Shown here in pieces: positions 24,001-30,000 of a stretch of 64,000 bases of DNA; within the stretch, counting starts at the first letter, position 1; every line of letters starts with the position of its first letter. The DNA is from Escherichia coli O127:H6 str. E2348/69 (GTDB taxonomy: Bacteria > Pseudomonadota > Gammaproteobacteria > Enterobacterales > Enterobacteriaceae): NCBI RefSeq assembly GCF_000026545.1, contig NC_011601.1; one strand, 5' to 3'. A program made the position numbers.

Positions 24001-27000
24001 CGAATTAGTTAGCGGAATTTACGCCGATTCTCGCCTGGCGTCATCCCAAAGCGTTGTTTAAATACCGTTGAAAAATGACTCTGGTCGGAAAATCCCCAAT
24101 GAAAGCCAATGCCTGCCAGTTTTTCATCATCTGCGGCATGGCGAATCGCATCTGCACAAAAATCGAGACGACGGTTACGAATATATTGCGCGACCACCAA
24201 ACCTTTATCGGCAAACTTTATCAGCGCGTAGCGCCTGCTGCTGTAGCGTTCGTTAGTGAAAAAGATGAAACCTCGGTCGGTGAGCTGCCTTCGCCGGGTA
24301 GCCTGTATTTTCAACGTTTTGGCGGTTTGAATATTGAACAGGAGGTGTTAAGCCAATTTATCAGATAGACGGTCTGACTCCGATAGTAACAGAAGAGAGT
24401 TTTGTTCATCCGACAGAGGTATTGATCGGCGATGTTATTCTCGGCAAGGGCGTTTACGTTGGACCAAATGCCAGCCTGCGAGGTGATTTTAGTCGTATCG
24501 TGGAGAAAGATGGCGCGAACATTCAGGATAATTGCGTTATGCACGGCTTTCCCGGGCAGGATACTGTCGTTGAAGAAGATGGGCATATTGGTCATAGCGC
24601 TATCCTTCACGGCTGCAATATCCGCCGCAATGCATTAGTGGGAATGAACGCGGTAGTGATGGTCGGTGCGGTGATTGGTGAGAACAGTATTGTTGGCGCA
24701 TCCGCATTTGTGAAAGCCAAAGCAGAAATGCCTGCTAATTATCTGATTGTCAGCAGCCCGGCAAAAGCGATTCGTGAACTTAGTGAGCAGGAGCTGGCAT
24801 GGAAAAAGCAGGGCACGCATGAGTATCAGGTGCTGGTGACACGTTGTAAGCAGACGTTGCATCAAGTCGAGCCATTGCGGGAAGTTGAACCTGGCAGGCA
24901 GCGTCTGGTATTTGATGAGAATCTGCGACCGAAACAGTCACGTCCAGATGCTGAACGTTCTAATTTTTAGCATGTGATACCTTAACCGCAACGCTGATAC
25001 AGGTTGCGGTTTTTTATTGCCGGATGCGGTACTTGACGCGTTTTGTTTTGGTGTCTTTCAGGATATTAGAGCTACTCATCCAGTAATCTTGTTTACGCCT
25101 TCGCATTATTTATCTCTATTCATTTCTATACTGATTTTTCTTAATCCGTTTTATTACAGGGCAGGGTGCGATGAGCAGCAACACATTTACTCTCGGTACA
25201 AAATCCGTTAACCGTCTTGGTTATGGCGCGATGCAACTGGCAGGTCCTGGGGTTTTTGGCCCCCCAAGAGATCGCCACGTCGCTATAACCGTGCTGCGCG
25301 AGGCGCTGGCATTGGGCGTCAATCATATTGATACCAGCGACTTTTATGGTCCGCACGTCACCAATCAGATTATCCGCGAAGCGCTTTATCCGTACTCTGA
25401 CGACCTGACAATTGTCACTAAAATTGGTGCGCGGCGTGGAGAGGACGCTTCCTGGTTACCCGCATTTTCTCCGGCAGAGCTGCAAAAAGCGGTACACGAT
25501 AATCTACGTAATCTCGGCCTGGACGTACTGGATGTGGTTAACCTGCGCGTTATGATGGGGGATGGTCATGGCCCAGCGGAAGGATCGATTGAAGCCAGCC
25601 TTACCGTGCTGGCGGAGATGCAACAACAAGGCCTGGTAAAACATATTGGCCTGAGTAACGTCACACCGACGCAGGTTGCAGAGGCGCGAAAGATTGCCGA
25701 AATCGTCTGCGTGCAGAACGAATACAACATTGTCCACCGAGCTGATGACGCAATGATTGATGCTTTGGCTCGTGATGGCATTGCCTACGTGCCATTCTTT
25801 CCGCTCGGGGGCTTTACGCCGCTGCAATCCTCCACGCTTTCCGATGTTGCTGCGAGCCTTAATGCGACACCAATGCAGGTGGCGCTGGCGTGGCTGTTAC
25901 AGCGTTCACCGAATATTTTGCTGATTCCTGGCACCTCTTCGGTGGGACATCTGCGGGAGAATATGGCGTCCGATGAATTAGTGCTAACGGATGACGTGCT
26001 GGCAACGCTGGACAGTATTTCGCAAAAGGCGGGTTAAATAAAAAAACCTCCCACTTTCGTGCTGTCTCTTGATCAGATCTCCTGATCAAGAGACTTCATC
26101 ACCAGGTAACCCTCAACCATATCCTGAAGTCTGAACCAGCCATCCCACATGACTACCCAACCGGGGCGACCGGTGCGTTTGCTGTCATGCCATCGCCCCA
26201 GTTTCGCCAGTTTCAGACAGGCCCATTTCAGTGTCGGCATCTGTGACGGAAGCGGTTTTCCTTCCAGCTTAACCCACAGCAGTTTCCACTCTGTCGGCGT
26301 CAGTATTTTCTCACAGCTGTCATTTTGTGTTTCTTCACTGATACCGCCCTGCCGCAGGCCCAGCACCCGCACCGCGATAAACGCCTTGATAACCACCATG
26401 CGCTCGAGGTTATCCCGGGTCTGCATTCGCAGCGATTCCACACATGTACCACCACTTTTCCACGCCTTGTGGTATTCCTCTATCAGCCAGCGTCGCTCGT
26501 AATGGCTGACGATACGTCGCGCATCGGCGGCACTCGCCACTTTTTCTGACGTCAGCAGATGCCAGCAGGCGCCGTCCTCTGCCTGCTCCCGGCAACAGAC
26601 ATACGTGAGCGGGAGCGCCTGGCCGCTGTTGTCGGGATTTTTTATGCTGACTTCGCTGTAACTGATGAACATCCGGGCCTGGCGGGCTGCCCGCCCGCCT
26701 TTTTGCATCACATTCAGCGTGTGGCTTCCCGCGGTTGCCAGGACTTCCGGCAGTTCGAAGAGCTTGCCGGGTGCTTCTTCCAGCCGGCGATTCTGTGCTG
26801 CACGCACCACGAAGCGCTGCCCGTGGCTGACTTTATAATGCAGGTAATGCCAGATATCCGCTTCCCGGTCACAGACAGTGATTACCCGTTTCTGTATCTC
26901 CCCCAGCCGTTCGGCCATGCGCTCCGAAGCCTGCTGCCAGCGGTAACTTTCTTTTTCTTCATAGGGACGTTCTTTTCGCTGGTGCTTAACACCGTAGGTG

Positions 27001-30000
27001 TCCGTGGCACGACTCCAGCGCTGCTGTTCGATAAGACCGACTGGCAGGGCGCTGTCGGGGGCGTACATCAGGACAGAGTGAGCCAGCAGCCCGCGCGTCT
27101 TCGGGTTAGTGGTGGTATTCCCCAGGTCATCAGATGCCGTACTGTGACTGAAGTTAATGGTGGTGGTGTCTTCCAGCGCGAGGAGCAGCGGATGAGCCTC
27201 ACATGCCCTTACAGTGGCGGTAAATCCGGCTTCGGCAATGGCTTGCGGGGACACAGACGGGTTACGTATCAGGCGGTACGCACCTTCAACCTGAGCAGTG
27301 GACTGGGATGATTTCACAATAGAAAGACCTGCATGCTGAGCGAGAGAAGAGGCCAGTGACACAAGGCGTCGTGTACGACGCGGATCACCGAGACGGGCAT
27401 GTCCAAACTGCTCGTTAGCCCATGAATAACAATCAGAAAGTACCATAACAGACCCGAAGAAAATGAAATATAAGAGAAGATCAACGGGTGAGGAAAAAGT
27501 TCAAAAAATCGCTGCCGGGGAGGAAGGAAACTACCGGATGGAAAGAGTCCCCCTAAAGCAGACTGACAGACATCACAAATCCCCGGGTGGGGATTTGTGT
27601 ATAAGAGACAGCACTTTCGTGGGAGGCATCATAAATCTTATGCAGCAACAATGCTGTCGATGGCTGCTTTCGCCTCAGACTGTGCTTTCGCTGCCATTTC
27701 CGGGCCGTACGCGATCCCTTCGGCGAAGACAAATTTCACATCGGTAATGCCGATAAAGCCCAGGAATGTGGACAGATACGGCGTCACCAGATCCGTTGGG
27801 CCATCTTTATGGATCCCACCGCGGCTGGTGATAACGATGGCTTTTTTACCGGTGACCAGGCCTTCCGGACCGTTCTCGGTATAGCGGAAAGTAACGCCTG
27901 CACGTGCAACCAGGTCAAAATAGTTTTTCAACTGGGTCGAGATATTGAAGTTATACATCGGTGCCGCAATAACGATAACGTCGTGGGCTTTCAGCTCGGC
28001 AATCAGCTCATCGGAAAGCGCCAGAGCTTCCTGCTGACGTGGAGTCAGCGGCGCATCGCTCGGACGCAGTGCACCAACCAGTTCGCCATCCAGGACCGGA
28101 ATCGGATTTGTAGCCAGGTCACGCACGGTGATTTCATCAGCGGAGTGCTTTTCGCGCCATTGTTCAACAAAATAATCGGACAACTGATTAGACTGAGAGT
28201 ACCCTGCCAGGATGCTGGATTTAAGAACTAATACCTTGCTCATGGTGTTTCCTTATAGATGTTTGAATGGGCGATGCCCCGTTGCTTGTTGACACTTTAT
28301 TCACAATCCTGCCACAGAGATAGCGCAATAAATCGAAGCCTATGTTCGAATTTATTGAACAACGCATAGAAAGCCGCGATGTGGTACTCTATATCTATCA
28401 TTTAAAAGAAAATTAATCAGGCAGACTACTGCCCACTAACGTTATGACAGAACAACAAAAATTGACCTTTACTGCCTTGCAGCAGCGGCTGGATTCGCTG
28501 ATGCTGCGTGACAGACTGCGTTTTTCTCGCCGTCTGCACGGCGTGAAGAAGGTTAAAAATCCTGATGCACAACAGGCCATTTTCCAGGAGATGGCGAAAG
28601 AGATTGACCATGCGGCAGGGAAAGTCCTGCTGCGTGAAGCGGAACGACCGGAAATTACTTACCCGGACAATTTGCCGGTTAGTCAGAAAAAGCAGGACAT
28701 ACTCGAAGCGATTCGTGACCACCAGGTGGTGATCGTCGCCGGGGAAACGGGTTCCGGTAAAACGACTCAGCTACCGAAAATCTGTATGGAGCTGGGTCGC
28801 GGGATTAAAGGGCTGATCGGCCATACCCAGCCGCGTCGGCTGGCGGCGCGAACGGTGGCGAACCGTATTGCGGAAGAGCTAAAAACGGAGCCGGGCGGTT
28901 GCATCGGTTACAAAGTGCGTTTCAGCGATCACGTCAGTGATAACACGATGGTCAAGCTGATGACCGACGGTATCCTGCTGGCAGAGATCCAGCAAGACCG
29001 CCTGCTGATGCAGTACGACACCATCATTATTGACGAAGCGCACGAACGCAGCCTGAATATCGATTTTCTCCTCGGCTATTTGAAAGAGTTGCTGCCGCGG
29101 CGTCCTGACCTAAAAATCATTATCACTTCCGCGACTATCGACCCGGAACGCTTTTCGCGCCACTTTAATAATGCGCCGATTATCGAAGTCTCCGGTCGGA
29201 CCTATCCGGTGGAAGTGCGCTATCGCCCGATTGTTGAAGAAGCCGATGATACCGAGCGCGATCAGTTGCAGGCGATTTTTGACGCCGTAGATGAACTGAG
29301 CCAGGAAAGCCCTGGCGACATTCTGATCTTTATGAGCGGCGAGCGAGAAATTCGCGATACCGCCGATGCGCTGAACAAGCTGAACTTACGCCATACCGAA
29401 ATCTTGCCGCTTTATGCGCGGCTTTCCAACAGCGAACAGAACCGCGTGTTCCAGTCGCACAGCGGGCGACGCATTGTACTGGCGACCAACGTCGCGGAAA
29501 CCTCGCTGACCGTACCGGGTATTAAATACGTTATCGACCCAGGTACAGCGCGTATCAGCCGCTACAGCTATCGCACCAAAGTGCAGCGTTTGCCGATTGA
29601 GCCAATTTCGCAGGCTTCAGCTAATCAGCGTAAAGGCCGCTGCGGTCGTGTGTCAGAAGGGATCTGTATTCGTCTCTATTCCGAAGACGATTTCCTCTCG
29701 CGCCCGGAGTTTACCGACCCAGAAATTCTACGTACTAACCTGGCCTCGGTTATTTTGCAGATGACCGCACTGGGCTTGGGCGATATCGCCGCATTCCCGT
29801 TTGTCGAAGCACCGGATAAACGCAATATCCAGGATGGCGTGCGTCTGCTCGAAGAACTGGGTGCGATCACCACGGATGAACAGGCCAGCGCCTATAAACT
29901 GACGCCGCTTGGTCGCCAGCTCTCGCAGTTGCCTGTCGACCCACGTCTGGCGCGTATGGTGCTGGAAGCGCAAAAACATGGCTGCGTGCGTGAGGCGATG

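Follow-up and report, generated by a model that had tools for sequence, protein, structure and literature searches.

In this work we analyse the region between paaY and hrpA in Escherichia coli O127:H6 strain E2348/69, the prototype enteropathogenic E. coli (EPEC), in which a copy of the insertion sequence (IS) ISEc13 lies between pdxI (the current name of ydbC) and azoR. The region belongs to a 64-kb stretch of contig NC_011601.1, which we call the window and whose positions are used throughout unless another record is named. The order annotated in RefSeq for E2348/69 is ydbL, a partial helix-turn-helix (HTH) domain gene, a partial paaX, paaY, pdxI, an "IS4-like element ISEc13 family transposase", azoR and hrpA, and positions 24400-28500 of the window are 100% identical to the E2348/69 chromosome and to two further O127:H6 assemblies. 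The plus-strand gene paaY (24356-24970) is followed after exactly 200 bp by pdxI, which encodes an aldo/keto reductase and lies on the same strand at 25171-26037, and an ISEc13 copy of 1550 bp (26062-27611, minus strand) is the only element between pdxI and azoR, the gene of a flavin mononucleotide (FMN)-dependent NADH azoreductase (27638-28243, minus strand). Both the short paaY-pdxI spacing and the presence of the IS alone between pdxI and azoR had been recognized in an earlier note on this DNA. The conserved right-hand neighbour hrpA, identified by annotation and homology, occupies 28444-32346 on the plus strand.

In K-12 MG1655 the corresponding order is paaY-ynbG-ydbA-pdxI-ydbD-ynbABCD-azoR-hrpA. 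The genes paaY, pdxI, azoR and hrpA are orthologous in both strains, with order and orientation kept, and at the DNA level the paaX 3' end with paaY is 93.8% identical to the window, pdxI 92.9%, and azoR with the beginning of hrpA 96.5%. However, K-12 carries about 8.9 kb (ynbG and an ydbA disrupted by IS2 and IS30) and 7.2 kb (ydbD-ynbABCD) that are both missing in E2348/69. According to blastn, positions 4064-13004 (ynbG, ydbA) and 14075-21255 (ydbD-ynbD) of the K-12 record L001 are without counterpart in the window, and tblastn with K-12 YdbD, YnbA-D and YdbA gave zero matches in the whole window (E ≤ 1e-10), in agreement with the absence of these genes that the earlier note had described. 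K-12 also carries another haplotype from the final ~110-185 bp of pdxI through the spacer, and has two other terminator hairpins, one 3' of pdxI and one 3' of ynbD. Searches of the literature on ynbA, ynbB, ynbC and ynbD returned only an unrelated genome announcement and nothing on the pdxI-azoR junction.

The ISEc13 element and its copies

The element had previously been called IS50-like, and this description holds, the specific element being ISEc13. Its intact open reading frame (ORF; 26073-27446, minus strand, in the orientation of azoR) encodes a transposase of 457 aa, and the name ISEc13 comes from the RefSeq label of the identical ORF WP_000244358.1, that is, from annotation and not from the ISfinder reference sequence. 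Residues 6-453 of this protein align with residues 9-469 of the Tn5 transposase (PDB 4dm0/1muh, E=6e-84), and it has an N-terminal DNA-binding domain of the Tn5 type (Pfam Tnp_DNA_bind, 70 bits) and a DDE domain (DDE_Tnp_1, 30.9 bits), each scoring higher than its cut-off, while the C-terminal dimerisation domain (Dimer_Tnp_Tn5) reaches 24.1 bits, just under the cut-off of 26.7. The architecture is therefore that of a Tn5-type DDE transposase, although the protein is shorter than that of Tn5 (476-477 aa) and clearly diverged over the aligned region, and the element here stands alone, outside any composite transposon.

The ends of ISEc13 read CTGTCTCTT...AAGAGACAG. They are short terminal inverted repeats, as in IS4/IS50-like elements, that start with CTGTCTCTT at both ends, the 9 terminal nucleotides being identical (9/9) with weaker matching further in. 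The left end (26062-26094) is presumably identical to the inside end of IS50 (CTGTCTCTTGATCAGATCT), and the right end (27574-27611) starts with CTGTCTCTTATACACA, which we take to be like the engineered "mosaic end" of Tn5. The left end together with the adjacent sequence forms a perfect 13-bp palindrome (fold of -26.6 kcal/mol, z=-4.8), and the right end continues into an 11-bp perfect hairpin at 27574-27599.

A second ISEc13 copy with the same terminal sequences lies in the window at 40723-42272, in the same orientation as the first and with its own 10-bp flanking repeat CCTCTGTAAG. It sits inside an IS3-family element that is itself frameshifted, in a group of IS fragments (IS3 family, ISEc21) with the hok/ydcA genes on one side and a truncated trg gene (methyl-accepting chemotaxis) on the other. 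We considered and rejected a recombination event between this copy and the directly oriented one at 26062-27611, as each has its own matching repeat. A third copy interrupts dgoD (galactonate dehydratase) in another part of the E2348/69 genome (positions 11511-13060 of record L091) and is flanked by an 8-bp repeat, TGCATGGG. The flanking duplication is thus close to the 9 bp typical of IS50, but two of the copies have 10 bp and the third has 8 bp, in contrast to the uniform 9 bp of IS50. These three copies are identical at 1550/1550 positions and about 30 places on the E2348/69 chromosome match the element, which indicates, at the level of sequence, a recent expansion of ISEc13 in this strain. 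In a full-text literature search ISEc13 was found only in resistome or mobilome listings, with nothing on this junction.

The insertion site and the empty site

On either side of the IS stands the same 10-bp sequence, CACTTTCGTG, as a perfect direct repeat (26052-26061 and 27612-27621). The sequences next to it, CCTCCCAC on the left (26047-26061, containing the left repeat copy) and GTGGGAGG on the right (27612-27626, containing the right one), are the two halves of one hairpin, in which CCTCC... and ...GGAGG, located outside the repeat, complete the inverted repeat. The empty site is found in strain A25, which is 99-100% identical to the window over ~24100-29200 and whose pdxI-azoR spacer reads GGGTTAAATAAAAAAACCTCCCACTTTCGTGGGAGGCATCATAAATCTTATGCAG, that is, the sequence of the window minus the IS and one copy of the repeat, with CACTTTCGTG in a single copy and the hairpin intact. 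Across E. coli genomes ISEc13 was detected at the pdxI-azoR site in three assemblies only, all of them E2348/69/O127:H6.

The claims of the earlier note about the insertion are borne out by these data. The intact target duplications that it described are the two copies of CACTTTCGTG; the single terminator hairpin that it proposed to be split by the IS is present whole in A25; and the adjacency of ydbC and azoR, which it had placed before the arrival of the IS, is seen both in A25 and in the several hundred genomes with a direct junction described below.

The azoR terminator

The genes pdxI and azoR are convergent and lie ~40 bp apart in the empty site, where the spacer holds a single GC-rich hairpin followed by a T-run on the azoR strand. 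On this strand it reads GCCUCCCAC-GAAA-GUGGGAGGU, then UUUUUUUAUUU, and the empty site (positions 7668-7647 of record L003, minus strand) scores as a canonical terminator, with a 9-bp GC-rich stem containing 6 GC pairs, a GAAA tetraloop and then TTTTTTTATTT, the azoR strand having a T7 run; the centroid energy is -17.9 kcal/mol (z=-3.2). This spacer hairpin is the predicted intrinsic terminator of azoR. It is canonical in one direction only, as the pdxI strand has an A-run before the hairpin and no T-run after it. In E2348/69, by contrast, the hairpin is split by the IS, the GC-rich stem-loop with its U-run is no longer found, and no terminator-like site was detected at the corresponding positions of the IS-bearing sequence.

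The insertion would have moved the halves of the stem 1.56 kb apart and would thereby inactivate the azoR terminator. Transcripts of azoR would read into the IS in sense with the transposase gene, and those of pdxI would read into it in antisense. The only local effect of the ISEc13 copy is probably this loss of the azoR terminator; the IS neither removes nor interrupts any host gene at the pdxI-azoR site.

Junction types in E. coli

The frequency of the compact junction was estimated with an 841-bp junction query against 5426 complete E. coli genomes, counting one-place matches covering at least 80% of the query. About 789 genomes have pdxI joined directly to azoR, while the pdxI-ydbD junction is present in 3905; consistent with these counts, ynbABCD DNA is entirely missing in 803. 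The compact genomes are of two types. In 146 of them (the type of RIVM_C037134 and 18KM2445) a K-12-type pdxI end is followed by a 113-bp spacer, which includes the terminator of ynbD and the final ~60 bp of that gene, and then by azoR; by their sequence, these are genuine secondary deletions of ydbD-ynbD. E2348/69, unlike them, has neither the K-12-type pdxI end nor the ynbD tail, and the remaining compact genomes, about 643 out of 789, are inferred to be of the ancestral type discussed below.

Other states of the ydbD-ynbABCD segment were observed. In the B2 strains UTI89 (positions 10384-10681 of L004) and Nissle (L005), ydbD is deleted save for its first ~30 bp and ynbABCD is kept before azoR, a third state. 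In APEC O2-211 (L088, 11496-12861) ydbD is annotated as a frameshifted pseudogene with an internal stop, of 1366 bp vs 2307 bp in K-12. It appears that ydbD decays independently in several lineages.

Outgroups and the pdxI 3' haplotype block

Outgroup loci were retrieved with the PdxI sequence, and five informative enterobacterial loci were obtained among the matches listed, the others being distant aldo/keto reductases of Rhizobiales and Burkholderiales. Pseudocitrobacter faecalis has paaX-paaY-ydbA-pdxI-azoR-hrpA, with a ~40-bp spacer containing a homologous hairpin; the divergent Escherichia SCPM-O-B-8794 (92.9% identity in azoR-hrpA) has ydbA-pdxI-azoR-hrpA; Kluyvera and an Enterobacter have pdxI...azoR-hrpA; and E. 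albertii shows the pdxI-ydbD arrangement. Neither ydbD nor ynb genes were found at the locus in Pseudocitrobacter faecalis, SCPM-O-B-8794, Kluyvera or Enterobacter. The ~40-bp spacer of E2348/69, hairpin included, aligns with those of Pseudocitrobacter and SCPM-O-B-8794, the hairpin being conserved and both arms of its stem carrying base changes. The spacers of the other two are different: that of Enterobacter sp. ENT03 (L011, 10856-11193) is made of about five tandem copies of a ~68-bp palindromic unit similar to repetitive extragenic palindromic (REP) sequences, and that of Kluyvera (L010, 10853-11334) contains a ~480-bp insert resembling a small ORF with its own terminator.

Because its junction is orthologous to those of Pseudocitrobacter and of the divergent Escherichia lineage, the "absence" of ydbD-ynbABCD from E2348/69 is, judging from these alignments, not a deletion: the compact pdxI-azoR junction is an ancestral-type arrangement, and ydbD-ynbABCD is, on the same comparison, an insertion haplotype (7.2 kb in K-12), both haplotypes segregating in E. 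coli. The insertion haplotype would have replaced the compact spacer, and it is linked to a divergent, foreign-looking 3' end of pdxI.

This divergent end is evident in the PdxI sequences, which finish in ...KAG (288 aa) in E2348/69 (...SISQKAG), A25, DP033, SCPM-O-B-8794 and Pseudocitrobacter, and in ...GISRE (286 aa) in K-12, UTI89, APEC O2-211, RIVM_C037134 and E. albertii. In the window the compact-specific block covers 25852-26061 (plus strand) and takes in the final ~110-185 bp of pdxI together with the spacer. Between E2348/69 and UTI89, both of which we take to be B2 strains, there are 6 differences in pdxI at 25171-25850 and 45 at 25852-26034. Between haplotypes, the last 138 nt of pdxI are 74-76% identical and the gene body 95-98%. 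The compact-type 3' end groups with Pseudocitrobacter (84-86%) and SCPM-O-B-8794 (82-83%), and the ynb-type end with E. albertii (84-85%). On the right of the junction, the two haplotypes become homologous again precisely from the stop codon of azoR.

The paaY-pdxI side

Homology to K-12 is lost one base past the stop of paaY and is found again from 24954, 10 bp before the K-12 ydbA stop (from position 13005 of L001 onward, and at the ydbA end of UTI89). The tail of ydbA and its terminator hairpin (24984-25011, followed by a T-run) are kept in a remnant at 24954-25016 on the plus strand, which marks the right edge of the ynbG-ydbA deletion. In both E2348/69 and A25 the stop codon of paaY has been lost (TAA to TCA), and the ORF is extended by 11 codons into this remnant.

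In contrast to the pdxI-azoR side, the absence of ynbG-ydbA is, from the junction sequence, a true deletion that preceded the IS and has no connection with it; it extends from just 3' of the paaY stop to a point about 15-35 nt short of the ydbA stop, and ydbA is present between paaY and pdxI in Pseudocitrobacter. That it is old, widespread and independent of the IS follows from its distribution, as the identical junction is found in A25, APEC O2-211 and 18KM2445 and gives one-place matches in 2032 of the 5426 complete genomes, more than a third. Only about ten genomes have both this junction and the compact pdxI-azoR one, so the region is visibly mosaic. Consequently, the earlier proposal that the gene absence predates the IS stands for both segments, with the refinement that ydbD-ynbABCD would never have been deleted in this lineage while ynbG-ydbA was.

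Further to the left, a C-terminal fragment of paaX (24217-24365, plus strand; a tblastn match to residues 267-316 of K-12 PaaX, annotated in RefSeq as a partial pseudogene) forms the right edge of another deletion. There, at 23900-24365, a 3' fragment of feaR (the partial HTH gene, minus strand) is joined to the last 50 codons of paaX, with the removal of feaB, tynA, paaZ and paaA-K, which leaves paaY as an orphan of the phenylacetate cluster. This feaR'-'paaX junction is also annotated in A25, APEC O2-211 and 18KM2445, DP033 has a different fusion (feaR'-'paaY), and in UTI89 ydbL is followed directly by ydbA.

Discussion

The data presented here make it very probable that this locus arose by a simple insertion of ISEc13 into a pre-existing compact pdxI-azoR junction, the junction being of the ancestral type and the ynbG-ydbA deletion being older than the insertion. 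ISEc13 would have transposed recently, and only in the E2348/69 lineage, into the stem-loop of the azoR terminator with duplication of 10 bp, probably by a cut-and-paste mode if it behaves as its relative Tn5. Several points weigh against this interpretation or parts of it. The polarity, with the compact junction as ancestral, is drawn from five non-E. coli genomes that do not include E. fergusonii, E. marmotae or E. ruysiae. E. albertii carries the insertion, so the compact haplotype of E. coli could have been re-imported by recombination and not inherited vertically. The ISEc13 duplication varies in length among the copies examined, and the loss of the terminator and the read-through are deduced from sequence alone.

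Of the alternatives, re-import is the one that survives best, although we consider it rather unlikely. It supposes that homologous recombination with another Escherichia or enterobacterial lineage replaced a ynb haplotype by the compact one, still before the arrival of the IS. It would fit with the presence of the insertion in E. albertii and most E. coli, with the shortness and sharp bounds of the divergent block (25852-26061) in pdxI and azoR sequences that are otherwise B2-like (over 98-99% identity to UTI89), and with the mosaic character of the region, in which E2348/69, APEC O2-211, DP033 and UTI89 have different combinations of the structural variants. However, no imported tract is detectable in azoR just to the right of the junction (98-100% to UTI89), and no donor closer than 82-86% is present among the loci compared. 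The present data would fit either a re-import of the compact allele or its vertical persistence as a long-standing polymorphism.

Another possibility is that a K-12-like ancestor lost ydbD-ynbABCD by a secondary deletion in which no IS took part and which brought pdxI next to azoR, an event of a kind that did take place in the 146 genomes of the RIVM_C037134 and 18KM2445 type. For E2348/69 it is highly improbable and we have rejected it, since a K-12-type descendant should retain ydbD or ynbA-D, or remnants of them, next to a pdxI ending in ...GISRE, while the junction of E2348/69 has no ynbD or ydbD remnant and the pdxI 3' haplotype is the other one, only 74-76% identical to the K-12 type. 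Moreover, its spacer and hairpin are orthologous to those of Pseudocitrobacter and the divergent Escherichia lineage, and a deletion cannot create such a sequence.

IS elements can cause adjacent deletions, and with ~30 matching places ISEc13 has been highly active in E2348/69; it might then have landed beside ydbD-ynbABCD and deleted them. Such an event costs one copy of the repeat and one native flank and leaves the IS abutting non-native sequence, whereas here both copies and both flanks are present and the flanks are contiguous in the empty-site genomes. The earlier note had already dismissed an IS-mediated deletion on similar grounds, and the exact empty site in A25, together with the hundreds of genomes with a compact junction and the zero ynb remnant in the window, refutes it and leaves this possibility with next to no probability. 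Furthermore, as genomes bearing ydbD-ynbABCD lack the spacer of which the duplicated 10-mer is a part, ISEc13 cannot have been adjacent to ynb DNA. A misplacement of the IS by repeat collapse during assembly, conceivable with ~30 identical copies in the genome, is equally negligible and was discarded in view of the identical 4.1-kb sequence in three separate, concordant assemblies and the site-specific 10-bp duplication of local hairpin sequence at the flanks.

Three independent layers are superimposed at this locus: the compact pdxI-azoR haplotype, the old ynbG-ydbA deletion and the recent ISEc13 insertion. For the prototype EPEC strain this means that the differences in gene content from K-12 in this region are inherited haplotypes and old deletions and not damage caused by ISEc13. 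The components, namely one copy of ISEc13, an intrinsic (Rho-independent) terminator and structural haplotypes that segregate, are all of well-known kinds and publicly annotated. This is ordinary strain variation, and the practical value is small. As an example for pangenome studies, "absence relative to K-12" can correspond to an ancestral empty site, to an independent secondary deletion (146 genomes) or to an old deletion (2032 genomes), and these histories are told apart by junction sequences and outgroups, not by tables of gene presence and absence.

A mildly interesting by-product is the ancient-looking, sharply bounded block of ~110-185 bp at the pdxI 3' end, with which the ydbD-ynbABCD indel is associated. 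This block is ~25% divergent between haplotypes, with the rest of pdxI homogenised. Tentatively, and with less than even confidence, we propose that the presence or absence of ydbD-ynbABCD is an old polymorphism crossing species boundaries in Escherichia, with the insertion in E. albertii and most E. coli and the ancestral junction in the divergent Escherichia and ~12% of E. coli. If this were the case, a 7.2-kb module resembling lipid metabolism would have entered by homologous replacement from a donor with its own pdxI end, and recombination would since have moved both alleles between lineages or maintained them.

Finally, another sign of mosaicism may be present in the right-hand neighbour. 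Within hrpA, at 29260-29900, the identity of A25 to the window falls from 99-100% to 92-96% and that of DP033 stays at 98-100% up to 29660, which suggests a recombination patch in this part of the gene.

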